Below are positions 2,922 through 58,611 of a DNA stretch of 64,000 nt, one piece after another (position 1 is the first letter of the stretch; each line of letters opens with the position of its first letter). The stretch is from Candidatus Dojkabacteria bacterium (GTDB lineage: Bacteria > Patescibacteriota > Dojkabacteria > J137), in the NCBI GenBank assembly GCA_030950485.1, contig JAUZRK010000001.1:103998-167997 (forward strand), given 5' to 3'. Position numbers and translations under genes: made by a program. The notes beneath the pieces were generated by a model that was given only the letters and a program-made list of their open reading frames with translations, searched no databases and was not told the DNA's origin.

Positions 2922-3284
2922 ATGGTGGACTTTACAAAACTAAACATCTGGATTCGTGCTAAGAATTTATCCGTTGAGATATATAGACTTACAGATGATT
3001 ATCCTAAAATAGAACAATTTGGCATCTCAAATCAAATGAGGCGAGCAGCGACTTCAGTTCCAGCAAATATATCTGAAGGGTGTAGCCGGGATTCTAAAAA
3101 AGATTTTTCTTATTTTTTAAGCATAAGCATTGGTTCACTAAATGAGATCTATACTTTTCTAGAAATCTTCTCAGATCTGAAATATCTACAATTAAGCAAG
3201 AAGAATACACTTATTAAAGAAATTAATGAACTTAAAAGCATGATCTATTCTTATAAAAAAAAACTTAAGACTAAGGAGTCTTAG
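2922..3284 (+). CDS. four-helix-bundle protein (23S rRNA intervening-sequence protein family)
   Basis: 120 aa, residues typical of TIGR02436-like proteins (..GSLNEIYTFLEI..); paralog at 43322-43687. Confidence 0.6.
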   Translation: MVDFTKLNIWIRAKNLSVEIYRLTDDYPKIEQFGISNQMRRAATSVPANISEGCSRDSKKDFSYFLSISIGSLNEIYTFLEIFSDLKYLQLSKKNTLIKEINELKSMIYSYKKKLKTKES

Positions 3285-3324: not shown

Positions 3325-6189
3325 ATGGCATTACCAAAAGGAGCTTACAATCCAAAAGAAAATGAACAAACTATACTTGATAGGTGGTTAGAAGCTTGTG
3401 CTTACAAACCCGAATATGATCCAAAGGAGAGCAGAGTAGTTAGTTTTGAGGAAATGAAAAATGATTCAAGAGAGGCGTGGAGTTTAATCTGTCCACCTCC
3501 AAATGCTTACGGAAGACCTCATATTGGAAATATTTCTGGATATGCATATATGGACGTAATGGCGAGATTTCAGAGAATGAATGGGAAAAAAGTTTTAGTT
3601 TTGCCAGGTAAAGACCATGCTGGTCTCGAAGGAGAGGGAGTATTCGTTAGAGAAGTACTTGAAAAGCAAAAAAGAGACAAATTCGACATGAAAAGAGAAG
3701 AGTTCTATTCAGAAATGATGGATTTCTTTGAAAACAATATGGATATTGCTATGAAAGATGAGAAAGAAATTGGACTTTCTGCAGATTTTGATAGAGATAC
3801 TTTTACACTTGACCCTGATATTGTAGAGACTGTTTTAGATACATTTGTTGAAATGTATAACGCAGGAATGATTTATAAGGGGGTTAGATTAATCAACTGG
3901 GATCCAAAGGCCAGAACTGCAGTTGCAGACAATCAAATACTTTATAAGGAATCAAAGACGCCTTTCTTTTATTTTAAGTATATTTATAAAACTGGAGACG
4001 AGAAAAGGGCCATTGAGCTGAAAAATGAATTTGAAGGAAAAGAGCTTGAATGGAACTATGAAAGAAATATGACAAAAGACGGGAAAGAGGATTTAACTTT
4101 TTCATATGGTCATTTGGATAATCTTGAGATTATGGGATATGGATACAGTAACGTCCAATCAGGAGACAAAATCAGGGGTAGAGTAGTGGGCATACAAATG
4201 AGGTTGGATAGTAAATACCGATTAGTGGTTATCCATCCTGACTATTCAGGAGACATCAAAAATGATATTGCTCAAACATTTTTATTCGAAGCAAAGTACT
4301 ACGCTGGAGCACACATTCTTTTATTCGAAGAGAATTCAAATGATTCAGATTATACAAATGGATTTGTAATTGGAACAGTACGACCTGAAACTGTATTTTC
4401 AGACACGGCAATAGCTTGTGATCCAAAAGATGAAAGATACAAAGAATTTGTTGGAAAAGAGGTTGAAGTAGAGTTCTTAGGAGAGAAGAAAAAATTAAAC
4501 TTCATTGCAGATTTTGCAGTTGATAAAGATTTTGGAACAGGTTTACTTAAGGTAACTCCAGCCCATGCAAAAGAAGACTGGGAGATTGCAAGCAGACATC
4601 CTGAAGAATGTTTACCTGCTATTCAGTGTATTAATTATGATTTAACAATGAATCATATATCTGGAGAGAAATATTCTGGTAAAAAGGCAAAACTTGTTAG
4701 AACTGAAATGAGAGAGGATATGTTAAAGAAGGGAAATCTTGTTTACGTTAATGATGAATACGAGAATAAAATACAGGTTGCAGAAAGAACTGAAGCCCCA
4801 ATCGAGCCTTTATTGTCTTCTCAGTGGTATTTAAGATACGACGGTATAAAGGAAGCTACAATTTTAATGGCGTTTAATGAGCATAATGATGATACAAATT
4901 TGGAACAGAGCAGAGAAGAACTGGAAGAGATATTGGAGAAATTCAATTCCGTAGGGGCAAATAATTATTTGCCCCTACGGAACGATTTACCCTTACAGAA
5001 GAGTTTACCTGAACAGAATGAAGATATTGAAACGAGAACAGATTCAAAGGCAACGAACCCGCAACCAGAGACCCATAACTCAGTTCACATACACCCCGAA
5101 ACAATGGTTCCAAAGTTTAATCATTGGATGAATAATTTAAGGGATTGGGCAATTTCAAGAAGTTTATGGTGGGGGTATAGATTGCCGGTTTGGTATTCAG
5201 GAGAGGTTAAGGAGGTTATTGATGAGAATGGACAGGTAAAGGAGTTGATTATGCAAAATGGTACATTTGTTGAATTAGAATATGCTAATCCAGAGCATAT
5301 TAAAGTACAGAAAGAATCACCTGGAGAAAGCTGGATCCAAGACGAAAACGTACTCGACACTTGGTTTAGTTCTGGGCAATGGGTTTATGCGACATTAAGA
5401 AAACATAATTTAATGGATGAATTTTTCCCATCAGACGTTATGGTTTCAGGTTTTGACATAATGGAGAATTGGATTAGTAGGATGATGATGTTTACTTATT
5501 TTAAAGAGAAGTCTATTCCGTTTAAGGATGTATATCTAACAGGATTGGTAAAAGGTACAGATGGACAGAAAATGAGTAAGTCAAAAGGTAACTTAATAAA
5601 CATTGACGAGGTTAGAGAAAAATACGGAACTGACGCGGTTAGAATGGTTTATTATTACCAAAATACTGCTGGTGCTGATTATGCAATGACTTATGAGAAG
5701 CTTGATACATTTAAGAAGTTTGTAAATAAGATTTGGAATGCGAGTAAATTCGTAGAGATGAATGTTGATGGCTCCGAAGGCGTAGGGACAAATAATAATT
5801 TGTCCTTACAAGATTTTCAATTGCCAGAGACAAAAGCCTTATTTAATCACATTCAAGAAATTAAAGAACAGATTACAAAGAATATTGAATCATTCGAGTT
5901 AGGTCATGCAACCTACAACCTTTATCATGGGTTCTGGCATGAATTTGCAGATGTCCATATTGAGGCTGTAAAGAAATATACTTATACTCAAAGAGATAAA
6001 GAAACAGGAGAGATAATTAGTGAGCCAAAGGCTGAAGAAAAAATTGAGGTGGGTAGAGTGTTGCTGTATGCTTTAAAGAATTACCTAAAAATGCTACATC
6101 CATTTATGCCATTTGTAACTCAAAGAATTTGGGATGAGTTAGAAAAGGAAGAGGGGGAGCATGAGTTTTTGATGTATTGCAAGTGGTAA
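3325..6189 (+). CDS. valS: valyl-tRNA synthetase (class I aaRS)
   Basis: 954 aa; HIGN-type motif PHIGNISGYAYMD, KMSKS motif GQKMSKSKGN, editing-domain-sized insert; carries an in-frame palindromic insertion at 4947-4983. Confidence 0.8.
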   Translation: MALPKGAYNPKENEQTILDRWLEACAYKPEYDPKESRVVSFEEMKNDSREAWSLICPPPNAYGRPHIGNISGYAYMDVMARFQRMNGKKVLVLPGKDHAGLEGEGVFVREVLEKQKRDKFDMKREEFYSEMMDFFENNMDIAMKDEKEIGLSADFDRDTFTLDPDIVETVLDTFVEMYNAGMIYKGVRLINWDPKARTAVADNQILYKESKTPFFYFKYIYKTGDEKRAIELKNEFEGKELEWNYERNMTKDGKEDLTFSYGHLDNLEIMGYGYSNVQSGDKIRGRVVGIQMRLDSKYRLVVIHPDYSGDIKNDIAQTFLFEAKYYAGAHILLFEENSNDSDYTNGFVIGTVRPETVFSDTAIACDPKDERYKEFVGKEVEVEFLGEKKKLNFIADFAVDKDFGTGLLKVTPAHAKEDWEIASRHPEECLPAIQCINYDLTMNHISGEKYSGKKAKLVRTEMREDMLKKGNLVYVNDEYENKIQVAERTEAPIEPLLSSQWYLRYDGIKEATILMAFNEHNDDTNLEQSREELEEILEKFNSVGANNYLPLRNDLPLQKSLPEQNEDIETRTDSKATNPQPETHNSVHIHPETMVPKFNHWMNNLRDWAISRSLWWGYRLPVWYSGEVKEVIDENGQVKELIMQNGTFVELEYANPEHIKVQKESPGESWIQDENVLDTWFSSGQWVYATLRKHNLMDEFFPSDVMVSGFDIMENWISRMMMFTYFKEKSIPFKDVYLTGLVKGTDGQKMSKSKGNLINIDEVREKYGTDAVRMVYYYQNTAGADYAMTYEKLDTFKKFVNKIWNASKFVEMNVDGSEGVGTNNNLSLQDFQLPETKALFNHIQEIKEQITKNIESFELGHATYNLYHGFWHEFADVHIEAVKKYTYTQRDKETGEIISEPKAEEKIEVGRVLLYALKNYLKMLHPFMPFVTQRIWDELEKEEGEHEFLMYCKW
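4947..4983. repeat. GC-rich perfect palindrome ttccgtaggggcaaataattatttgcccctacggaa embedded in-frame in valS (encodes SVGANNYLPLRN)
   Basis: perfect inverted repeat; same element recurs in two other genes. Confidence 0.8.
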
Positions 6190-24971: not shown

Positions 24972-25677
24972 ATGGAACTACACTATATTCAAGCAGCAAT
25001 ACTTTTAGAACTAGGCCAGATAAAAGGCCTAACTTTTAGTGGATTCAAAATACCGACTGAGCTTAATATAGAAGCAGATAAATTTAACTACCATCTTAAA
25101 ACGCTAGTAAAACTAAAACTAGTAAATAAAAAAAGAAGGAGAGTACTCATTAAGTTTTGAAGGTAAGAAGATTGTAAGTAATCTAGATTTTATAAATAAA
25201 CAAAAAGAGGAAACACCTAAAATAAGTATTATGGCTAGGATATTCAGAGAGAAAAAAGGTATTAAGCAAATTTTAGTTAGCCAACGACTTAAACATCCTT
25301 ACTTAAACGCACTCGGTTTAGTTACTGGAAAAGTCAAAGTTGGAGAAAAATTTGAAGACGAGATGATTCGAGAATGTATTGAAGAAACGGGGCTTGTTCC
25401 TACTAAGTTTGAAATGGTAGGAGTAGCTAGATGGATTGATTATGATTCGAAGAAGACATTGCTACACGATGCTACTTTTATAATTTTCGATGTTTATGAA
25501 ACTGATGGAGTATTAATAGAGCAGAGTGATGAATCTAAAAATTTCTGGGTAGATTATTCAGAATTAAAAAATATGGACAATTTATTGCCTACTTTAAAAG
25601 AGATGGCTAAGGGGAAGGAGCTCCAGAGTAGAACAATGGTTTTTGAGGAAAGAGTAGCTGTTTTGGATAATTTTTAG
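24972..25677 (+). pseudogene. winged-helix + Nudix hydrolase fusion, split by a +1 frameshift in an A7 run (25128-25134)
   Basis: ORF1 ends ..LVNKKRRRVLIKF*. Dropping one A gives LVNKKEGEYSLSFEGKKIVSNLDFINKQKEETPKISIMARIF.., which joins ORF 25231-25677. Canonical Nudix box GKVKVGEKFEDEMIRECIEETGL. Confidence 0.65.
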
Positions 25678-25689
25678 GGGTTAGTTTGA

Positions 25690-25860
25690 AACGTTTCGGG
25701 ACACGGTTCAACCTTGACCCAGCCAGGGTCACAACCTAGATCATCCGCAAGTGTACATACACTGGCGCATGGTTTGCCATTTTTATGCAGGAGCATGGTT
25801 GTACCATGCTCCGATACGTTTTTATGACAAAGCTAAAAGTTCATGAGAAAGTATATTTAC
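25690..25860. ncRNA. GC-rich structured island in convergent intergenic space (candidate small RNA or 3' element)
   Basis: perfect 9-bp hairpin ggagcatgg/ttgta/ccatgctcc and hairpin ttgaccc/agcca/gggtcaa; GC content well above surroundings. Confidence 0.3.
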
Positions 25861-35570: not shown

Positions 35571-35582
35571 AGTAGTAGTTTA

Positions 35583-35730
35583 AAAGTAAAAAGTTAGAAG
35601 TAAAAAGTATAAGACGCAGTTATTACCTTACTTACTATGCAATACTTCTTATGTCTTAAATCGTATTTCATAAATCTAGCTTCTTGCCACTTTTTTTATT
35701 TGACTTTTTACTTTTAAATTTTAACTTTTC
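35583..35730. repeat. inverted pair of AT-rich promoter-like repeats (aaagtaaaaagt.. and ttgactttttacttttaaattttaactttt) flanking an 80-bp core
   Basis: same motif family at 45352-45438, 53350-53386 and 53685-53715. Confidence 0.5.
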
Positions 35731-42512: not shown

Positions 42513-42622
42513 ATTTTTTAGATCTGTGTAAATCTGTAAGATCTGTTAAATCAGTGTTCTATTAGATTTGTTAAAAGTGCAAGCAGTTTAGGCGGATTCC
42601 TGCAGATTAACTTTTCTTCGCT

Positions 42623-42952
42623 TTAATCAATTTCTACAGTAATTCTATATGGCCTTCCAATAGCATCTAGAACCTTAGCTAAATATTCAACTGAAATATT
42701 CTGCTGACCTCTTTCTAGCCTAGAAATTGATGCAGGCTTTGTATTAATTCTTTCAGCTACTTCTTTTTGAGTTAAACCTTCTGCGATTCTCGCTTTTTCA
42801 ACTTTCTCTGCTATGTCTAAGCCGTATTTTTTTCTAAGCTCCAACCTGGTCTCTTCTGCTTCTTTATAAAATTTTTCACGATCTTTAAGATCGGGATAGT
42901 ATTTTCTTATTAGTTGCTCATGGCTTATTAATTTTGATTCATCTATTTTCAT
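42623..42952 (-). CDS. XRE-family HTH antitoxin (HigA-like)
   Basis: HTH AEGLTQKEVAERINTKPASISRLERGQQNISVEYLAKV. Confidence 0.6.
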   Translation of the reverse strand: MKIDESKLISHEQLIRKYYPDLKDREKFYKEAEETRLELRKKYGLDIAEKVEKARIAEGLTQKEVAERINTKPASISRLERGQQNISVEYLAKVLDAIGRPYRITVEID

Positions 42953-43763: not shown

Positions 43764-45281
43764 TCACCCTCCAATCTCAACCCTATAACTCAACGCCTCC
43801 ATTACTTCAGTTTTAGTAATTTCTTTTGAGCCATTTAAATCAGCTATTGTTCTCAATACTTTTAAAAGTCGATAGTAAGATATAGCACTTAAGTTCATTT
43901 TATTAACTGCTAGTTTAAGAATATCTGTGGTTTCTTCATCAAGTTTTATAAATTCCTTAAGTTCTTTTCCATTTAAATCTGAATTAGAAATGATAGAGGG
44001 GTAGTTATTATATCGAGTAATTTGAAGGTTTCTAGCTTTTAGGACTCTCTCTAATTGACTCAGAAGATTCAGAAGAGCTTTGAGAAAAGAGTTTCTCATT
44101 CTCTACTTTCGGAACATTGATCAATAAATCTATTCGGTCCAGAATTGGCCCTGAGAGACGCTTTAAGTACCTAGCAGATTCCATTGGATTACAGCTACAT
44201 TCTCTAACAGGATCTCCTTTATAACCACATTTACAAGGATTCATTGCTGCTACTAATGTAAAGTTCGCAGGAAATGTTAAAGATCCAGAGGCTCTAGAAA
44301 TTGTGACAACTTTATCTTCAAGGGGCTGTCTTAGTGCTTCTAATGATTTAGAAGAAAACTCTGGGAACTCATCAAGGAAAAGTACTCCTCTGTGTGAAAG
44401 AGAGATTTCTCCTGGTTTAATTTGTCCTCCACCTCCGACTAGCGCTACTTGCGACGAAGTATGGTGGGGACTTCTAAATGGTCTGTCTTTAATAAGTGGT
44501 TCTTCTTTTGAAGTAAGGCCACATACGCTATAAATTCTTCTAATTTCTAATGATTCATTCGTGGTTAGTTCAGGAAGTATTGATCAAAAGCATTTAGAAA
44601 GCATAGTCTTTCCAGATCCAGGAACTCCCGACATTAAAACAGACCTCCTGCAGCTGCAATTTCCAAAGCTCTTCTCGCATGTTCCTGGCCTTTTACCTGG
44701 GCGAAATCATAGGCATATTCCTTAATCTTTTGCTTCATGTCTTTCTCTTTTCTTTGATAGACAGGTATTTCAGTTATTCCATCAAAATGATTCAATATTT
44801 CTTTTATAGTATTAACTCCATAAACTTTAATTCCAGAAATTAGGGAAGCTTCATCTGCATTTTCAATAGGAAGATATATCTCCTTATAGCCAAGCTTATG
44901 AATAGCATCAGCAATTGGCAGTATCCCTTTTACTGGTCTTAACCTTCCATCGAGTGCAAGCTCTCCAATAAATAGTTTATCTTTTGTATTAAAGTGAATT
45001 TGTCTTGAAGCTAGTAAGTAACCGAGGGCTAGCGGAAAATCGTAACTTGGACCAGACTTATTTAATTCTGCAGGCGCTAGATTCATAATTATTTTCATTG
45101 GAATAAACTCAGCTCCTGAGTTTATTATAGCCGACGGTATACGATCATTCGCTTCTTGAATAGATTTATCAGCAAGCCCTACAATTGAGATATGTGTATT
45201 TCCTTTCCTATAATCAACCTCAACTTCAACGATTTTACAGTCTAGACCAACAAGAGCTGCGGTATATAGTTTTGCAATCAT
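43764..45281 (-). pseudogene. comM: Mg-chelatase-like ATPase ComM/YifB with multiple frameshifts and an in-frame TGA (44584-44586)
   Basis: N-terminus MIAKLYTAALVGLDCKIVEVEVD..EIAAAGG, then the frame shifts to VLMSGVPGSGKTMLSKCF*SILPELT.. A further shift precedes NPCKCGYKGDPVRECSCNP, and another precedes the C-terminal domain ORF 43764-44099. Confidence 0.8.
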
Positions 45282-45873
45282 TCTTTATTTTAAATCGGAA
45301 AGTAATCTGTGGATTTAGAAAGTAGAGTAGAGTGAAAGAGTTTTGAAAGAATTTCAAAGTAAAAAGTACAAAGTCAAAATGTCTTATACACTGAATTTCA
45401 TGTTAGTTTTATTACTTTTGATTTTTTACTTCTTGATAGTTAATATTGTGCCATGGCGCATTTAATGATATACTTACTCTCGATACATAAGATATTACAA
45501 AATAATATGGAAATGTATTAAAAACGGTAAGGCCGCCTGATGAAGGGCCACAGAAACCTACTGAGAATATCAGTATTTTCGATAAGTTCATTAATGCTTC
45601 ACTAGATCTTCTTCAACATTACATTGACTACAAAATAAAATCAGAACTCTGGGAAATTGGGACAGAGCTAGTATCAGGATTTCTTGAAGGTGTAAACCTG
45701 ACAGATATAAATTTTGATGAGCTACTAGATGGATTTGAAGATCTGGTAAGTGGAGGACTGGAGCAGTAGTTACAGGCTATTTATTAGCTTCCTTGTGTTT
45801 TGTATACTCCTGAAAGAATTTTTATTTAGAATAATTAGTTAAATTAGAGCAATTAGCATAATTCTGTATTGAT

Positions 45874-48233: not shown

Positions 48234-48797
48234 CTAGACAACTTTTACATATATTCTAAATTCATACCTAATCTCACACTCTAAAACTCTAGTTACAAAT
48301 TTCTGACTTTTCTCTATCTTCCATATTGAATCATTAATTTCGGGGAAGAAAATATCACCTTCTATTTCATGATCTAAAACAGTTAAATATAACTTATCTG
48401 CTTTATCTATAAATTCATTATAAAGACTCGCACCTCCAAAAATAAAAATCTCTTCAGAACCAGGAGAGTTGTTTGCGATTTCTAAAGCGCTTTCAATATT
48501 ATTAGCTAATTGCCCCTCACCCGTTTCTAAATCACTATTTGAGCTAAGAATTATATTTGTTCTGCCTGGTAGAGTTTTTGGTTTATCTAATTTCTTTCCA
48601 TCTGAACCCTTAAATGATTTAAAACTAGAGATGGACTCGAAGTTCTTTCGCCCCATTATTATCGGATGTCCCATTGTAAGTTTTTTGGTTCGTTGATAGT
48701 CTTCAGTTATATGCCAAGGGATTGTATTACCCTTTCCTATAACATTATTTTTAGACATTGCTGCGATTATTGAAATCATTCTTTTTATTGATACCAA
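48234..48797 (-). CDS. folA: dihydrofolate reductase
   Basis: MISIIAAMSKNNVIGKGNTIPW and GRKNFESI motifs. Confidence 0.75.
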   Translation of the reverse strand: MVSIKRMISIIAAMSKNNVIGKGNTIPWHITEDYQRTKKLTMGHPIIMGRKNFESISSFKSFKGSDGKKLDKPKTLPGRTNIILSSNSDLETGEGQLANNIESALEIANNSPGSEEIFIFGGASLYNEFIDKADKLYLTVLDHEIEGDIFFPEINDSIWKIEKSQKFVTRVLECEIRYEFRIYVKVV

Positions 48798-48849
48798 TTC
48801 TATTTTACATCATGGGAAATATTAAGGCGAGTTTATGGTGTTGGTTCGG

Positions 48850-48905
48850 GCGACGATGAAGGCGACAATCATGATTGTCGCCTTCGGATAATTGCCGCCT
48901 TCATT
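48850..48905. promoter_or_regulatory. perfect 28-bp palindrome gaaggcgacaatcatgattgtcgccttc plus two extra half-sites (ggcgacgat, aattgccgccttc) in the folA / kinase divergent region
   Basis: GC-rich dyad symmetry in an AT-rich spacer; operator-like or hairpin. Confidence 0.45.
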
Positions 48906-48930
48906 AAAAAAGGTTAATGAAATATAATCA

Positions 48931-51177: not shown

Positions 51178-52182
51178 TTGAAAGTAGATAACAAAGTAAC
51201 AGCAAAATTAAATGAACAAGAAAAACAGGAGCTCTATAAAAACGCTAGGGCTAAAGCTTGGTACGATGGGATTTGGCAAACTGTAGGAAAGTGTGTTTTC
51301 TGCGATCTTCGAGATAAATATATTATTCATGAGGAACATGGAATTGTTTTAACTGTAAATATCTACCCGTATATTGACGGTCAAATGCTAGCTGTTCCTA
51401 GAAATCATATTAAATCCCCGAAGGAATTAACTGAAAGACAATGGGAGACAATGAGAAAATTTAGCTATATTGCTAAGAAATTAATAAGAAAGACTCATGG
51501 TCATAAAGGTATGTGGAGCCTACTTAGAGAGGGCGGCATTAATGCTCAGATGAGTGTTTCTGATCATTTACATATGCAATTTATACCCTTCGATAACTCA
51601 GACCTTGCGACATGGAACTACCGTGAGTTAAAGCATACGCCGCTTGAGAATGCTGGACTTTATAAAGAGAACTTTAAGGTTATTCAAAAGAATGCTATTA
51701 AGTTCGATGAGAAATATAGCTCAGGGCAGCTATTAAATTTAATCACGGATTGTATTTTCAAAAATGAAAAAGGTGAAGCGCTTCTAATAAAAAGATGTGA
51801 AGATCATAAAATAGAAGGTTATGATTATTGCTTCCCGGGAGGTCATCTTGATCATGTAGATCAAGGAGTTTTTGGATCACTTTTCGATGAAATGAAAGAA
51901 GAGGTAAATTATTCGATAAAAGAGGAGAGTGTTAAGTTACTCGATTCGAGACTTTCTAAAATCACTTATCTAAATGATTCAAAATATTTAGGAGTCGAGA
52001 TGAAGAATTCTGAAAACGTTTTATGGAATATATACTACTACGATAAAGTAGTTAATTCATCAGAGTTTAAAGCAGGCGATGATGCCGACAGTTTGTATTG
52101 GATAAAAGAAGACGAGGTCGATAAATTCAAAGGTATATCTAAGGAGACTAAAGAAATTTTACATAAGTTTTTTTCACTATGA
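51178..52182 (+). CDS. HIT-superfamily (GalT-like HxHxQ branch) and Nudix-like fusion protein
   Basis: N-terminal CVFCD zinc knuckle and DHLHMQFIP; C-terminal FPGGHLDHVDQGVFGSLFDEMKEEVN Nudix-like box. Confidence 0.5.
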   Translation: MKVDNKVTAKLNEQEKQELYKNARAKAWYDGIWQTVGKCVFCDLRDKYIIHEEHGIVLTVNIYPYIDGQMLAVPRNHIKSPKELTERQWETMRKFSYIAKKLIRKTHGHKGMWSLLREGGINAQMSVSDHLHMQFIPFDNSDLATWNYRELKHTPLENAGLYKENFKVIQKNAIKFDEKYSSGQLLNLITDCIFKNEKGEALLIKRCEDHKIEGYDYCFPGGHLDHVDQGVFGSLFDEMKEEVNYSIKEESVKLLDSRLSKITYLNDSKYLGVEMKNSENVLWNIYYYDKVVNSSEFKAGDDADSLYWIKEDEVDKFKGISKETKEILHKFFSL

Positions 52183-53138
52183 AATTCTTCGACTGGAATG
52201 AATACGCATTTAAAAGTAAGAGTGATATCAAATCATTAAAACCATTGGTGTTTTTAGCCGCTCCGAGGAAATTAAGTGAACAATATGTAGTAAATTTATT
52301 CAAGAGTTATGCTACGAGTTCCAATGTACTTATAGGTATAGCTAAAGAGGACTTTATTAAAGGTTTTGAAGACCAAGAGCAATTTCGTACTTTGAAGCTT
52401 ACTGATATAGAAAATTTTGTCGATAAGGTTCGGAAGTCTAAGGCTAAAGATCGACTGCATTTTATTGAATACTTCCAAGATGATCTAATCCATATTTTAG
52501 AGAAGATACCTTTTAAAAAAGTACTGTTTGTTAACGGGTCATGGAGTAGAGTCTTCCATACAAGGTCTGAATTTTATACTTTGGTAAAAAATAAAATAGA
52601 TTATGAACTAGTCTCTGCGTTTAGTTCGGAAGAAGAGGCGAAAGAGTATTTTAAAAGTATAAAGTCAAAAGTACAAAAAGATACAAAGAAAATTAAAATT
52701 GGACATATATTTAAAGATGATAACGAGGCGTTTGAACTTGTAGATAACATAGCTAAATTCAGTTTTGACAATTCTTTTCAGACCGGAGCAGTCTTAACTA
52801 AGAATAAGAAGTTACTTGCTTATAGTTGGAACAGGGTCGTGCCGTATGAAACGTACGCTTTGTTAAACGGTTATCAAAGAGAAATTCATTTAAGTCCGCC
52901 TAACGATACTAATCATTACGATACTAATCACGCGGAGGTTGAAATGTTAATTAAGGCGAATAAAGAAAATATTGATTTAGCTGGAACGACTCTTTATATA
53001 AATTTATTACCTTGTCCTAGTTGCGCAAGAATGATTTGCAATACTGAAATTTCTGAGATTAAATATAAGATCGATCATAGTGAGGGTTATGCGTTTGATT
53101 TGCTCAAAAAAGCTGGGAAGGAGGTGGAGAGAGTTTAG
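52179..53138 (+). CDS. unknown N-terminal domain fused to a CMP/dCMP-type zinc-dependent cytidine deaminase domain
   Basis: HAEVEML .. PCPSCARMI (H[AC]E..PCxxC) in the C-terminal 140 aa; overlaps the upstream gene by 4 nt. Confidence 0.55.
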   Translation: MKFFDWNEYAFKSKSDIKSLKPLVFLAAPRKLSEQYVVNLFKSYATSSNVLIGIAKEDFIKGFEDQEQFRTLKLTDIENFVDKVRKSKAKDRLHFIEYFQDDLIHILEKIPFKKVLFVNGSWSRVFHTRSEFYTLVKNKIDYELVSAFSSEEEAKEYFKSIKSKVQKDTKKIKIGHIFKDDNEAFELVDNIAKFSFDNSFQTGAVLTKNKKLLAYSWNRVVPYETYALLNGYQREIHLSPPNDTNHYDTNHAEVEMLIKANKENIDLAGTTLYINLLPCPSCARMICNTEISEIKYKIDHSEGYAFDLLKKAGKEVERV

Positions 53139-53469
53139 AGTTATGGGTTTTGGGTTTATAGTGTACTAAAATTTTCGTACATTCTTTAAAAATTTAATCT
53201 GTATTATTCACCTCATAGGGGGATAGAAAACCTAAAGATCTGTATTAATCCGTTTAATCAGTTAAATCTGTGTTCTATTTTCAATGGTCAAATTGAACAC
53301 TGATAAAACTGATCAGTACTGATTCTATTACAATTTGAACAATTTACTTTTGACTTTATATTTTTAACTTTTTACTTTATTTATAGTTAAAGGGATCATT
53401 TAAATGTTTAGTTATAAGCCAACCGGCATACGGGGTTTGATATAGTAAACTAAACAATTCAGCTCTTAA

Positions 53470-53640
53470 AAAAATTAGTGCAATCCCCTCCTACGGAGGG
53501 GTACCCGACAGGGCAGGGAGGGTAGCGAGCATTTAAAAAGCTCTCGAGTCAGGATTTAACATACCCAACCCCTTCCGTATTAGCTACGCTAATCCACCTT
53601 CCCGAAGGGAAGGATTAAAACATAAATACAGAGTGAGACT
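53470..53640. ncRNA. GC-rich structured island upstream of thyA (candidate riboswitch or small RNA), flanked by AT-rich direct repeats
   Basis: hairpins cccctcc/tac/ggagggg, ccttccc/gaa/gggaagg and gtgaga/ctttttt/ctcac; long-range gggagggtagcgagc vs gctacgct..ccaccttccc complementarity. Confidence 0.3.
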
Positions 53641-53719
53641 TTTTTCTCACAACTTTTATTTTAGAATAATTAGGATAATTTGCTTTTGACTTTATACTTT
53701 TAACTTTTTACTTTGCACT

Positions 53720-54673
53720 ATGATCCATCCAGAATACGAATACCTAAAACTTTTAGCGAAGCTTTTAAAAAATGGTAAGGGAAAAAAGACTAGAGGGATA
53801 CATGGAGGGAAATCTCTTTTCGGATATCAAATGCGATTTGATTTTCGACATGGATTTCCAGTTTTAACTACGAAGAAAATGCCTTGGAAGATTATGACGA
53901 GGGAGTTACTTTGGTTCATTTCTGGTTCTTCAAATATTAGGAAGCTACAAGAAAAGGGGATTAAGTATTGGGATGATTTTGCAGATACTGAGGGAAATCT
54001 CGGTCCGGTTTATGGTGTTCAGTGGAGAAAGTGGCCTGCTTTCACGCCTTTAACTCAACCTAAACCTGACTTTTATGCGCACGAGATGAGTGAAACAGAT
54101 TCGTTTAAATCTGATTTTCCTAAGCCTAAATATTGGGTTGATGAGAATGGAGATAAACATGAGTTTGATAATAAAGTTGGTTTGTATCAGAGGACTGAAC
54201 TTGATCAGTTAAAGTGGGCAATTAGTGAGATTAAAAATAATCCCGATTCTAAGGCGATTATTGTTCAAGCTTGGAATACTGCTTACTTAGATTCGATGAG
54301 ATTACCTCCTTGTCATACTATGTTTCAATTCGATGTTACTAAGGGTAAGTTAAGATTACATCTTTATCAAAGAAGCTCTGATGTATTTCTAGGGTTACCG
54401 TTTAATATTACGCAGTACGCTCTTTTATTAGCTATGGTCGCGCACGTTACGGGCTTAGAGGCGAGAGAGTTTGTTGTTAGTATCGGTTCGGCTCTACTTT
54501 ATTATAATCATATTGAGCCTGCGAAGGAGCAGCTTAAAAGAAAACCTTATCCATTCCCAAAACTTTGGTTAAATCCGGAGGTTACGGATATTGATAATTT
54601 TAGCATTAAGGATATAAAGAGGAAGGGGTATGAGGCTCATCCAAGGATTAAGGGGGAGTTGGTAGTGTTATAA
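53720..54673 (+). CDS. thyA: thymidylate synthase ThyA
   Basis: catalytic Cys in LPPCHTMFQF; 317 aa with a typical ThyA insert. Confidence 0.8.
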   Translation: MIHPEYEYLKLLAKLLKNGKGKKTRGIHGGKSLFGYQMRFDFRHGFPVLTTKKMPWKIMTRELLWFISGSSNIRKLQEKGIKYWDDFADTEGNLGPVYGVQWRKWPAFTPLTQPKPDFYAHEMSETDSFKSDFPKPKYWVDENGDKHEFDNKVGLYQRTELDQLKWAISEIKNNPDSKAIIVQAWNTAYLDSMRLPPCHTMFQFDVTKGKLRLHLYQRSSDVFLGLPFNITQYALLLAMVAHVTGLEAREFVVSIGSALLYYNHIEPAKEQLKRKPYPFPKLWLNPEVTDIDNFSIKDIKRKGYEAHPRIKGELVVL

Positions 54674-55046
54674 ATTAAAACGATTAACAACCTAAATTTA
54701 TGAAATACCTTTTGCATCCATAAAATACTGGATTGCATAACTAAAAAGGTGCTACACTTTATATACAACTTAGCTGTTGAACGAATCAAGAGTATTCTTA
54801 CCTCTGCTCTTGTTAATTATCATTTGAATTTTGATCATGTAGTGACTCTGATACTTGATCAGTATTTAAATACTGAATTATTTTATTTATTAATATACTC
54901 TTTATGAAGTATAAAACCAAATCAGAACGAATCCAGCCCTTGGCTCAAAAGCTCTTGCTACTAGCTTATTCAGAGGTTATTCATAAAAATAAAGCTTATA
55001 CAAATACAATTATCCTGAATAAAGCACATCTTACACTCAGTACAGT

Positions 55047-55160
55047 CTCTAGAAATTTACGATTGAAGGGATGTAAAATACAAACCCGGTGCAGTCTCGA
55101 GTGATTTACGACCGAAGGGATGTAAATTGTATCGAGAGGCGGACACCCCCTCCGCTTCGC
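55047..55160. repeat. two tandem copies of a 35-bp unit containing the dyad ATTTAC-N12-GTAAAT, followed by a GC-rich hairpin
   Basis: gtctctagaaatttacgattgaagggatgtaaaat / gtctcgagtgatttacgaccgaagggatgtaaatt. Confidence 0.5.
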
Positions 55161-55175
55161 TCCAGGCACTCGACA

Positions 55176-56615
55176 CTACACTTTTATAATAAGCTTATTA
55201 TAAATATCAATATGCCCCTGGAGCATTTTTCTTAGAGTAAATTTATTCTCAAAGCTATCTCTACAAACGCTCCTATCAACTTGATTAATTTTCTCCATCA
55301 CTTCAACTAACTCATCGACAACCCTAGACTCACCATAATAGAAATCTCTCACCTTCTTCATCTTACTCTCATAATAACTCTTTCTCTTTTCCCGGTCAGA
55401 ATCATTAATAACAAAACCATTTTTCCCATTTTCTATCAGCTCTTTTGTAGCCCCATTATCTAAACCTATAACCGGAGTCCCACATGATAAGGCCTCTATA
55501 GTAACCATTCCAAACGGCTCCTTAAATATAGAAGGTACTAACAACGCCTTAGCATTCCCTAAAAATTTCTGCTTAGCTTTGTCGCCTGAAACGTATCCAA
55601 CGTATTCAACTGTATCATTTAGTTCAGGCGCAATTACAGAATTCCAATATGAATCATTCGACTCATCTGAATAATGCTTTCCTGCAATCTTTAGAGTTAC
55701 GGGTTTCGAGTTTCGGGTTGCGAGTTCCTCATTATATTTTTTTACTGCAGCTATTGCGTAGTGGACCCCTTTTGGTTCAATTATTCTCCCGAGATAAGCA
55801 AAATATTCTGTATCATTTTGGCCAGCAGGAGCAGGACTTGGCTCACCAGCTGGAGATGGGTTGTACCCTGGTCCTAAATATTTTGGCTTAAACCTTTTTT
55901 CATCAATTCCATGATAAACATTCCCAACCCAATTCGTATCATCCGGCATATCTTCTCTTTGAGATAGAGACATTGAGATAAAATTTCTATCTTTATATTT
56001 CGGTAAAATAGTTCGATATTTCGTTAGAAAAGAGTAGGGATCATGATGCGTAAATACAACTGGCTTATTACAAAGCCCGCTCATCTCAAGTGCGATCTGT
56101 TCTTCCAACATGTAAACATGAACAATATCAAACATATCATCATTAGCCATTTCGTAGGCTTTGGCTATTATTTCAGATTGAAAATGTCTAGAGAGAGTAG
56201 TGAACAGTAAGGGATGTTTTTTAAGGAGTTCTTTTAGACCGTAACCCCTAGTTTCCAGTTCTTCTTTCAGTAGGGTTTGGTCTGCGGTGATGTTTTTTAC
56301 GGTAGGGGCAAAATATCTTTTACCTTTACTCTTTTTTGTTGGATCAAAAAATCTTTTGCCCTTACTGTTATCTCGACCAACAACCCCAGGCGAAAACAAC
56401 GTAACCTCAGCTCCTGCCTCGGCAAGACCATTTGCAAGATCAATAGCAAGATCTCCCGGAGAAAATATATTATCAGACATCAATTCATCCGACATAAAAA
56501 TATGCGGACAAACGAATGCAATTCGTATTGGAAAATTAGGGGCTGTCATCTGCTCTCGTAGGGGCAAAATATTTTTTGCCCCTACGGATTCGATTACATT
56601 ATTTTTCTTCCTCAT
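55176..56615 (-). CDS. GT4-family glycosyltransferase with several in-frame repeat insertions
   Basis: EPFGMVTIEALSCGTPVIGLDNG near the C-terminus; family A palindromes at 56293-56368 and 56557-56586; family C repeat at 55694-55726. Confidence 0.6.
   Translation of the reverse strand: MRKKNNVIESVGAKNILPLREQMTAPNFPIRIAFVCPHIFMSDELMSDNIFSPGDLAIDLANGLAEAGAEVTLFSPGVVGRDNSKGKRFFDPTKKSKGKRYFAPTVKNITADQTLLKEELETRGYGLKELLKKHPLLFTTLSRHFQSEIIAKAYEMANDDMFDIVHVYMLEEQIALEMSGLCNKPVVFTHHDPYSFLTKYRTILPKYKDRNFISMSLSQREDMPDDTNWVGNVYHGIDEKRFKPKYLGPGYNPSPAGEPSPAPAGQNDTEYFAYLGRIIEPKGVHYAIAAVKKYNEELATRNSKPVTLKIAGKHYSDESNDSYWNSVIAPELNDTVEYVGYVSGDKAKQKFLGNAKALLVPSIFKEPFGMVTIEALSCGTPVIGLDNGATKELIENGKNGFVINDSDREKRKSYYESKMKKVRDFYYGESRVVDELVEVMEKINQVDRSVCRDSFENKFTLRKMLQGHIDIYNKLIIKV
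56557..56586. repeat. palindrome cgtaggggcaaaatattttttgcccctacgg in-frame in the GT4 gene (ESVGAKNILPLRE)
   Basis: family A element; degenerate copies at 56293-56330 and 56343-56368. Confidence 0.75.
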
Positions 56616-57129: not shown

Positions 57130-58611
57130 TTAATCTAACACAATCTCCTCATCAATCTCCGCATTAGGATCTCGATCAACTCGATCAAAGTTATTAAATA
57201 AAACTCCCAGAGACTCTGCTTTATCTTTATTCTCTCTAAGATAATCAAATAGACTTCCCATTTTATTTACCCCGTTTCCTGTTTCTCGACCCAACTCGAT
57301 ACCCGCAACCCGTAACTCACCTCCCGCTACTCCTAACTTAATATTCGCAGCTACTCCAATCATCGCAGCATTATCTCCAGTCAGCTTAGAAGAGTAGGGA
57401 TACTTTAATTTAACATCATTCTTCTTACATAAACTTCTAAATTCTGATCTTAATCTCTTACTTGCAATAACCCCTCCACCAAGCCAAAGTTCACTTGGAT
57501 TATGCTTCTTTATAGCTCTTTCTAATTTAACTTTTAATTGAGTAATTGCCGAAGCTTCAATCATTACGCATAGATCATTTATTTGATCTCCCGATAAGTT
57601 CTTAGTTTCTTTATTAAGTTGATCTTCAATAGTTATCTCATCTTTTACCAATGAATTAGTTAATTCTTTAAAAGCAGTTTTTAAACCTGAAAAACTAAAG
57701 TTAAAATCTCCAGATCTATACATAGGAATTGGAAGAGAGTAGCTAGTGCCACTTTCTTTATTAGTACCTATAACATTTGTGCTTTTATTATTCTTTTTTA
57801 TTTCAATTTTAAATTTCTTTCTTTGATCATCTGCAAACCTACTAACTGTAGGACCTGCAGGATATCCTAATCCAAGCATACGCCCAGCCTTATCGTAATA
57901 TTCTCCACATGAATCATCTAAAGTAACCCCAATTTTTTCGTAATCTCCAATCCCATTTACTTTAATCATTTCCGTATGCCCCCCAGATATAAGAAAGCCC
58001 AGTACTGCTTTTCCTTCCCTTGAGGGAAGGTCCCTGAAAGGGGGATGGGTGATTTGACCATGTTCTTTATCGTGCTTAATTTTTACCTTAGAATTTCTCT
58101 CAACAAAACCAGACAACAAATGCCCTTCCATATGATTAATAATCATCAAAGGCTTATCAAATTTTTCAGCTAAAGCAATGGCCTTTCTAACTCCAACCTC
58201 TAACGCAATAGCTAATCCAGGACCATAAGTAACAGCAACTAAATCGACTTCACTCATATACTTTCTTAAATCACTTTCTTGTGTTTCCCCCTCTCCTGGG
58301 AGAGGGCTGGGCCTGTCCGAAGCTGCTGCATCGTTGCTGGCGGAGTGAGGGATAGCTCTTTTTAAAGCTTCCACCACTACATTATCAATCCTCTCTGTAT
58401 GAGCTAACTTAGCAAGGCTTGGCACAACACCTCCATATTTTTCGTGGTATTTTTGTTGAGAAGGCATTACGCTAGATAGAACAGTAGTACCTCTAACAAT
58501 TGAACAAGATGTTTCATCACAAGATGTATCAATCGCCAAAGTTGTAATTTCGTTTATAGATTTAGAATTCATTAGGTAATTATACCAAATGAAATTAGAT
58601 CGAACCTGCAA
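57130..58611 (-). CDS. tsaD: tRNA N6-threonylcarbamoyladenosine synthase TsaD (Kae1/Gcp), extended by insertions
   Basis: LAIDTSCDETSCSIV and INHMEGHLL motifs; 493 aa vs about 340 typical; contains a family B palindrome (58287-58307) and a family C repeat (57285-57318). Confidence 0.7.
   Translation of the reverse strand: MQVRSNFIWYNYLMNSKSINEITTLAIDTSCDETSCSIVRGTTVLSSVMPSQQKYHEKYGGVVPSLAKLAHTERIDNVVVEALKRAIPHSASNDAAASDRPSPLPGEGETQESDLRKYMSEVDLVAVTYGPGLAIALEVGVRKAIALAEKFDKPLMIINHMEGHLLSGFVERNSKVKIKHDKEHGQITHPPFRDLPSREGKAVLGFLISGGHTEMIKVNGIGDYEKIGVTLDDSCGEYYDKAGRMLGLGYPAGPTVSRFADDQRKKFKIEIKKNNKSTNVIGTNKESGTSYSLPIPMYRSGDFNFSFSGLKTAFKELTNSLVKDEITIEDQLNKETKNLSGDQINDLCVMIEASAITQLKVKLERAIKKHNPSELWLGGGVIASKRLRSEFRSLCKKNDVKLKYPYSSKLTGDNAAMIGVAANIKLGVAGGELRVAGIELGRETGNGVNKMGSLFDYLRENKDKAESLGVLFNNFDRVDRDPNAEIDEEIVLD

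Follow-up and report, generated by a model that had tools for sequence, protein, structure and literature searches.

Introduction

Leaderless mRNAs occur as a genome-wide mode in Actinobacteria, Deinococcus, and archaea. Orphan small RNA genes, for their part, were reportedly sought by Klein, Misulovin, and Eddy in 2002 as GC-rich islands in AT-rich genomes. Here we analyze a locus that recalls both, the region upstream of the thymidylate synthase gene thyA in a Candidatus Dojkabacteria genome (GenBank assembly GCA_030950485.1, contig JAUZRK010000001.1, forward-strand positions 103,998 to 167,997; this 64,000-nt stretch is referred to below as the window, and coordinates are window positions). 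A GC-rich, hairpin-rich island lies there between two direct copies of an array of TTNACTT heptads, the second of which ends immediately before the thyA start codon. Our tentative interpretation, which may well prove wrong, is that a lineage-specific insertion split a deaminase-thyA operon, that the inserted DNA encodes an orphan plus-strand RNA of ~275 nt, and that a duplicated hairpin-plus-array module restarts thyA transcription. Like the candidates of the Klein type, the island is an ORF-free intergenic segment with promoter-like and terminator-like flanking signals. As in leaderless genomes, a −10-like box lies 5 to 8 nt before the start codon and there is no Shine-Dalgarno (SD) sequence; unlike in the plain leaderless case, thyA has a second −10 candidate that would give a short leader. 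The Klein-type candidates reportedly had expression or conservation support, whereas the thyA island and its start-codon geometry are known from sequence alone.

The heptad arrays resemble two described kinds of element. TAACTGA heptamer repeats occur just 5′ of start codons in Beggiatoaceae, Cyanobacteria, and Bacteroidetes, and S1, Csp, or CsrA proteins have been proposed to bind them (MacGregor 2015, PMC4679880); as cited in that paper, the commonest long simple-sequence repeats of prokaryotes were those with 7-nt units (Mrazek et al. 2007). The TTNACTT arrays share with them the 7-nt period, the intergenic location, often a few nucleotides upstream of a start codon without an SD sequence, and a distribution scattered over phyla, Bacteroidota and Cyanobacteria included. 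They differ in having one free position, whereas the TAACTGA copies are perfect, in forming in ~40% of cases the T-rich arm of an A-arm/loop/T-arm palindrome, and in adjoining convergent stop codons as often as start codons. This palindromic form is in turn reminiscent of bidirectional intrinsic terminators, in which a hairpin stands between an A-tract and a T-tract: the A-rich arm is 5′ and the T-rich arm 3′, the segment between them often forms a GC hairpin (examples are loci L010 and L041 and a palindrome at 35575-35724 of the window), and each array copy at the thyA locus lies 8 nt after a hairpin. Unlike the short A and T runs of such terminators, however, the arms here are arrays of 25 to 60 nt, identified purely by sequence, and some lie between divergent genes.

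Results

The window has a GC content of 32%. In it, thyA (53720-54673, plus strand; 317 aa; Pfam PF00303, E = 1.7e-99), which has no SD-like sequence upstream, follows a dCMP-deaminase-like ORF (52179-53138). The local gene order is dihydrofolate reductase (DHFR; minus strand), APH-like kinase, cytidylyltransferase, a gene of unknown function, HIT-NUDIX, dCMP-deaminase-like, thyA, and a convergent glycosyltransferase. The DHFR gene, folA, is intact (48234-48797) but inverted, 5 kb from thyA. The deaminase-thyA spacer measures 581 nt (53139-53719) and the spacer 3′ of thyA 502 nt, compared to a median intergenic gap of 54 nt in the window, and the 53139-53719 spacer contains no ORF of at least 30 aa.

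ThyA and the deaminase have 100% identical counterparts in a Candidatus Dojkabacteria metagenome-assembled genome (GCA_030949735.1, contig JAUZSD010000008.1). Over 7 kb, its NCBI record and the window disagree at two places (51101 and 52145), through a single-base indel and a single-nucleotide polymorphism, neither of which affects the island. The segment is thus not an assembly artifact, since an independent assembly has the identical sequence there. An artifact caused specifically by the repeat was also ruled out: the exact words common to both copies are at most 13 and 17 nt long, and the two assemblies agree.

Within the spacer, GC content rises to 48 to 60% at 53450-53610. On the plus strand, the candidate structured RNA would extend over ~275 nt (53385-53660), from a start predicted from the first array copy to a T-rich stretch after the last hairpin, with a minimum free energy of −76.4 kcal/mol and z-scores of −3.3 to −3.9 against shuffled sequences. 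Its GC-rich core (53485-53613) comprises predicted hairpins at 53485-53501 (CCCCUCC/GGAGGGG, −12.3 kcal/mol), 53504-53513, 53579-53593, and 53597-53613 (CCUUCCC/GGGAAGG, −9.9 kcal/mol), with outer-pair probabilities of 0.77 to 0.98, and the 7-bp G/C stems among the predicted helices are perfect. A long-range helix (53516-53522 with 53570-53576) encloses a further hairpin (53527-53543), and another helical region is predicted at 53405-53456. A terminator-like element, flagged by a terminator scan, follows at 53633-53662; it consists of a GUGAGA/UCUCAC hairpin (53633-53650), AAC, and then UUUUAUUUU. The GC-rich, hairpin-rich island with long-range complementarity described in the first-pass annotation is therefore confirmed. 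A likeness of CUCCUACGGAGG to 16S helix 14 was judged coincidental; here the loop is a 3-nt UAC closed by a C-G pair.

Because both strands fold better than shuffles (z = −2.8 to −3.8 for the minus strand), the structure is of moderate significance, and folding alone leaves the strand unsettled. An RNA of ~145 nt could accordingly be imagined on the minus strand, running from ~53612 to the hairpin at 53501-53485 and a seven-T run (53474-53468). Besides its similar folding z-score, it would have the strongest hairpin of the island followed, 10 nt on, by UUUUUUU, a separation of stem and T run for which a terminator-like site elsewhere in the window (25790-25830) provides a parallel; a weak Rfam match at this place is to a family of the two-hairpins-plus-U-run type (anti-hemB, E = 0.16). 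A promoter scan of the minus strand of the region, however, returned no acceptable site, the best found by eye being TTGTGA-18-TATTTA, with a −10 lacking the final T. The helices 53415-53420/53434-53439 and 53516-53522/53570-53576 moreover contain G-U pairs, for which the minus strand would have A-C mismatches. These pairs, the promoter-like copy upstream, and the downstream hairpin with its T-rich stretch together favor the plus strand in our sequence-based assessment, and we regard a minus-strand RNA as very improbable.

The repeat flanking the island has a 29-nt core present at 53350-53378 and 53686-53714; the two copies match at 28 of 29 positions, whereas 100 dinucleotide-shuffled versions of the window gave an expectation of zero matches. 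These coordinates replace the 53350-53386 and 53685-53715 given previously for the repeat pair, whose existence is borne out. Similarity between the copies reaches 57 nt at 84% (53322-53378 and 53658-53714, both on the plus strand), these direct repeats lying 336 nt apart. The core can be read as head-to-tail heptads, TTGACTT TATAYTT TTAACTT TTTACTT, i.e., TTNACTT units with a 7-nt period and four or five units per copy; in copy 1, the five-heptad core TTTACTT TTGACTT TATATTT TTAACTT TTTACTT occupies 53343-53377. As noted earlier, 5 nt separate copy 2, whose last base is 53714, from the thyA ATG at 53720.

Each copy contains alternative promoter-like arrangements. In copy 1, TTGACT (53350-53355) pairs with TACTTT (53373-53378), or TTGAAC (53335-53340) with TATATT (53357-53362); in copy 2, TTGACT (53686-53691) and TACTTT (53709-53714) are accompanied by an alternative −10, TATACT (53693-53698). 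TTGACT-17-TACTTT matches consensus at 5/6 plus 3/6 positions, its −10 keeping T1, A2, and T6, while TTGAAC-16-TATATT scores 9/12. Start codons of the 70 window ORFs of at least 100 aa were surveyed, SD motifs being sought in an upstream 15-nt segment that stops 4 nt short of the start codon. An SD-like motif was present in one gene (5.4 expected), and the commonest arrangement was a TAnnnT box ending 5 to 8 nt before the start codon (28 of 70 genes; 9.4 expected), with a second, smaller TAnnnT peak near 21 nt. The thyA gene fits both classes, TACTTT having a 5-nt gap and TATACT a 21-nt gap. From this pattern, the genome appears to start translation without SD sequences and often without leaders. 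A leaderless thyA mRNA, as suggested in the first-pass annotation for the case that TTGACT-N17-TACTTT acts as a −35/−10 pair, is consequently plausible in so far as the gap and the missing SD go, but it would reflect a genome-wide property rather than one specific to thyA, and a leader of ~15 nt, with TATACT as the −10, is equally allowed.

Both 57-nt copies begin 8 nt after a hairpin. For copy 2 this is the terminator-like hairpin at 53633-53650, and for copy 1 an AT-rich hairpin at 53257-53313 (plus strand; 24-nt arms, 83% complementary; −16.5 kcal/mol, z = −3.4). Judging from their shared free positions and flanks, the two arrays are true duplicates of each other, and the order deaminase stop codon, hairpin and array, island, hairpin and array, thyA looks like a junction module duplicated around a GC-rich insert. 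A 20-nt motif, ATCWGTTAAATCWGTGTTCT, forms part of the first hairpin and has three matches in all (53257-53276, 53294-53313, and 42541-42560; 0.04 expected). The copy at 42541-42560 lies in the spacer after an XRE-family helix-turn-helix gene (42623-42952), and ATCTGT/ATCAGT words recur at ~10-nt spacing in both ATCWGTTAAATCWGTGTTCT regions; the motif may be an operator or a further repeat family.

A third, partial array was found in inverted orientation within the deaminase-like ORF (52651-52673, minus strand; the plus strand is A rich there), where it occupies a linker of variable sequence among relatives. It is perfectly complementary to 53683-53703 over 21 nt (100%) and to 53345-53367 at 96% over 23 nt, and the exact 18/18 match to the 5′ end of the repeat has an estimated chance probability of ~5e-5 in the window. 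In a read-through transcript, this segment could pair with either array copy as a duplex of 21 to 23 bp.

The repeat architecture bears directly on the main alternative, namely that the island is a nonfunctional relic, either foreign or rearranged DNA or the product of a tandem module duplication between recombination- or slippage-prone arrays, with incidental transcription at most. Direct repeats of 57 nt bracketing the island fit such a history, and so does the array fragment in the deaminase ORF. The surroundings are rearranged as well, with folA inverted 5 kb off and a 502-nt noncoding stretch containing a 49-nt tandem duplication after thyA, and the island hairpins themselves look internally duplicated (AATCC-CCTCC...GGAGGGG versus AATCCACCTTCCC...GGGAAGG). 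On the other hand, the repeats at its flanks are direct rather than terminal inverted ones, a transposase is lacking, and the 64-kb window has no second island copy, so that the segment does not correspond to a miniature inverted-repeat transposable element or an insertion sequence. It likewise shows no similarity to plasmids or phages. Unselected GC-rich DNA would be expected to decay in a genome of 32% GC, yet the G/C stems are perfect. On balance we consider a relic somewhat unlikely. An origin of replication, an idea prompted by the AT-rich repeats, found no encouragement in the form of a DnaA-box cluster, as judged on sight only.

Comparison with relatives clarified the evolutionary status of the island. 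Five syntenic relatives, none of them close, were compared (L059, L060, L003, L001, and L056), and in none of them (0/5) is a GC-rich island present 5′ of thyA. L059 and L060 have the order DHFR, APH, cytidylyltransferase, HIT, deaminase, thyA, and glycosyltransferase (minus strand), as in the window, with a deaminase-thyA spacer of only 7 nt; the spacer in L003 consists of 105 AT-rich nt, and L001 and L056 have an ORF of 137 aa between the two genes. L057 and L058 also have 7 nt to the next gene. Given its absence from the syntenic relatives and the local rearrangement, the island therefore represents a lineage-specific insertion in a rearranged neighborhood. This pattern fits a relic as well as an orphan RNA, and it answers in the negative the question, raised earlier, whether the island is conserved upstream of thyA. 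Neither the 137-aa ORF of the relatives nor DHFR, used as tblastn queries, left a trace in 53139-53719 or 54674-55176, so that the segment is not a decayed copy of either.

A lineage-specific insertion also argues against a conserved thyA riboswitch. The corresponding model would have the island act in cis as a thyA 5′ leader, a riboswitch or attenuator whose transcription begins at copy 1; the hairpin at 53633-53650 would serve as a conditional terminator, and copy 2 would provide a second promoter closer to thyA. A structured region with a terminator-like hairpin upstream of a metabolic gene and on the same strand is the layout that such leaders have, a weak terminator would permit read-through, and the genome appears to use leader RNAs elsewhere, a T-box-like match being present at 2654-2881 (E = 1.4e-5). 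The relatives, however, couple thyA directly to the deaminase gene and have no leader, inspection of the sequence and fold uncovered no antiterminator pairing with the terminator arms, and a full promoter-like element lies between terminator and ATG. The folate- or nucleotide-sensing riboswitch proposed in the first-pass annotation also found no counterpart in Rfam: the window scan gave no island match at the gathering threshold, and a permissive-filter search of 53100-53800 at E ≤ 10 returned only noise and no riboswitch class, with folate (THF and THF-II), ZTP, 2′-dG, nucleotide, and T-box families included. The covariance-model check thus connects no family to the island, and a cis-acting leader appears improbable.

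Other searches for relatives of the island were similarly negative. A whole-window Rfam scan at E ≤ 1 reported just the T-box-like match, nothing for the island, and neither Rfam nor ARAGORN matched housekeeping RNAs (RNase P RNA, signal recognition particle [SRP] RNA, tmRNA, 6S RNA, tRNA) in it. Short-word blastn and a covariance model returned the island alone within the 64-kb window. Against phages, blastn gave just chance matches of 25 to 41 nt, and against plasmids no match to the island. A 20-mer scan of IMG/VR found no island match; in JGI metagenomes it produced three matches, all in GC-rich coding sequence of unrelated contigs and taken as chance. A single-sequence covariance model run over 57 sources (457 kb) recovered only the island itself. 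Among 5.8 billion proteins, the closest other ThyA is 61% identical and the closest other deaminase 53% identical, and alignable intergenic DNA is absent for this reason.

The heptad arrays, by contrast with the island, are widespread. The window itself contains related arrays at 35700-35728 (plus strand), 35580-35611 (minus strand), and 45353-45377 (minus strand). The first two fall at the palindrome directly 3′ of murB (35575-35724), an A-arm/loop/T-arm structure with a GC hairpin in its loop (−33.6 kcal/mol, z = −4.7). An array pattern of 25 fixed bases was then matched against a 596-Gb GTDB collection, outside which the window's own genome lies. It was found in 47 loci (L009 to L055), with fewer than 0.2 chance matches estimated even if the whole collection were AT rich. 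The loci span Bacteroidota, Planctomycetota, Acidobacteriota (genomes of 61 to 64% GC included), Omnitrophota, Patescibacteria groups, Cyanobacteria, Bdellovibrionales, and others. One IMG/VR contig (L005) also carries an array, adjoining a long inverse array, and some arrays elsewhere comprise 9 to 16 units.

These 47 loci provide 48 array sites, 41 of which are intergenic. The T-rich arm pairs with an upstream A-rich arm at 18 of the 48 sites and with downstream sequence in 1 of 47, and the resulting palindromes often hold a GC hairpin in the loop. In eight loci the array ends 4 to 13 nt before a start codon on the same strand, and the exact arrangement TTGACT-17-TACTTT-5-ATG recurs at three of these, L028, L033, and L052, and is seen in Bacteroidota, Acidobacteriota, and Bdellovibrionota; the L052 ORF begins MPELPEV, which we take to be an Fpg/MutM N terminus. 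In ~15 loci the array adjoins the stop codon of a convergent gene. The element type is thus generic, similar arrays behaving as intergenic filler across many phyla, a circumstance that also suits a relic at the thyA locus. A literature search by sequence words found no description of a TTNACTT array family.

Several other features of the window were recorded. The T-box leader match at 2654-2881 is below threshold (40.7 bits) and precedes a gene for a class I aminoacyl-tRNA synthetase (3325-6189), with a 23S-rRNA-IVP family gene (2922-3284) inserted between the leader-like segment and the synthetase gene. The spacer that separates folA (minus strand) from the APH-like kinase gene has a GC-rich element at 48800-48930 (z = −3.3 on the plus and −4.7 on the minus strand) with a perfect palindrome of 12 to 13 bp, GAAGGCGACAAT CATG ATTGTCGCCTTC; in an alternative pairing, ATGAAGGCG could pair with a second CGCCTTCAT. 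Downstream of thyA, at 55035-55176, each unit of the 49-nt tandem duplication (43 nt at 81%) has a hairpin, ATTTACGAYYGAAGGGATGTAAAT, and a GC-rich hairpin, GAGGCGGACACCCCCTCCGCTTC, follows the duplication; this segment folds no better than shuffles (z = −1.0 and −0.4). A GC-rich stretch between convergent genes at 25671-25830 includes GGAGCATGGTTGTACCATGCTCC, which forms a 10-bp hairpin with a T run 6 nt beyond it; this probable terminator shows that stem and T run can be separated in this genome. At 44100-45281, a ChlI/ComM-like ORF is just 215 aa long, and the minus strand of the adjoining 534-nt "intergenic" segment reads as the remainder of the gene, including a Walker-A-like GSGKT, such that the gene may be frameshifted or split. 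Finally, 58258-58382 within a TsaD-like ORF is 68% GC, far above the genome average.

Discussion

In the scenario that we tentatively prefer, a noncoding segment of ~580 nt would have been inserted into a tightly packed deaminase-thyA operon. The segment would consist of two tandem junction modules, each made up of a hairpin, 8 nt, and a 57-nt array, with the GC-rich insert between them. Transcription of the deaminase operon would stop near the first hairpin and array, and array copy 1, through TTGACT-17-TACTTT or the overlapping TTGAAC-16-TATATT, would start the structured RNA near 53385. This RNA would end at the weak hairpin and T-rich stretch (53633-53662), and array copy 2 would restart thyA transcription, giving an mRNA either without a leader or with one of ~15 nt, two arrangements that are both frequent in this SD-poor genome. 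The starts, ends, and strand of all these transcripts are predictions; we favor an orphan RNA over the alternatives mainly for the persistence of perfect G/C stems against a genomic GC content of 32% and for flanking signals that point in the right direction. The earlier proposal of an independent small RNA driven by copy 1 is compatible with the promoter-like copy upstream and the hairpin and T-rich stretch downstream, but as a match of patterns.

Several observations weigh against this scenario. The minus strand folds nearly as well as the plus strand. The terminator is weak, its hairpin having a free energy of −6.0 kcal/mol and only three G-C pairs, with the T run offset by 3 nt. Promoter-like matches are not enriched in the region (6 found versus 8.4 expected in shuffles), and the alternative parse TTGAAC/TTAGGA-16-TATAYT, which would give thyA its ~15-nt leader, competes with the reading of the copy as a leaderless promoter. 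Related arrays in the window lie 65 to 110 nt upstream of other starts or within a coding region, and arrays in other genomes have no fixed orientation relative to genes, for which reasons a heptad array is not in itself evidence of a promoter. TTGACT-N17-TACTTT is present as the −35/−10 pattern previously described, but within an array that is not a private promoter. The island, lastly, is an orphan of a single genome, and with no homologues in any of the collections searched its validation by covariation or comparison is impossible.

Two bolder readings may be mentioned, which even taken together we consider improbable. In one, the island would be the first example of a new class of structured RNAs confined to a poorly sampled Dojkabacteria lineage. 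In the other, the TTNACTT arrays would be a portable intergenic module shared across phyla, in which the array and its A-rich arm would end the upstream transcript while the TTGACT...TACTTT phase would supply a promoter placing the next gene on a leaderless mRNA. The latter is, in our view, the more interesting of the two.

Overall, the finding is real but modest: an orphan candidate RNA next to a widespread heptad array, not next to a private promoter. If the island does encode an RNA, it would be among the very few candidate nonhousekeeping RNAs described in bacteria of the candidate phyla radiation, and one set in an otherwise compact operon for deoxynucleotide synthesis. The TTNACTT array family adjoins gene boundaries and is hence relevant to the prediction of promoters, terminators, and small RNAs in such genomes, where caution is called for because the presence of an array in two copies does not by itself indicate that a promoter is shared.

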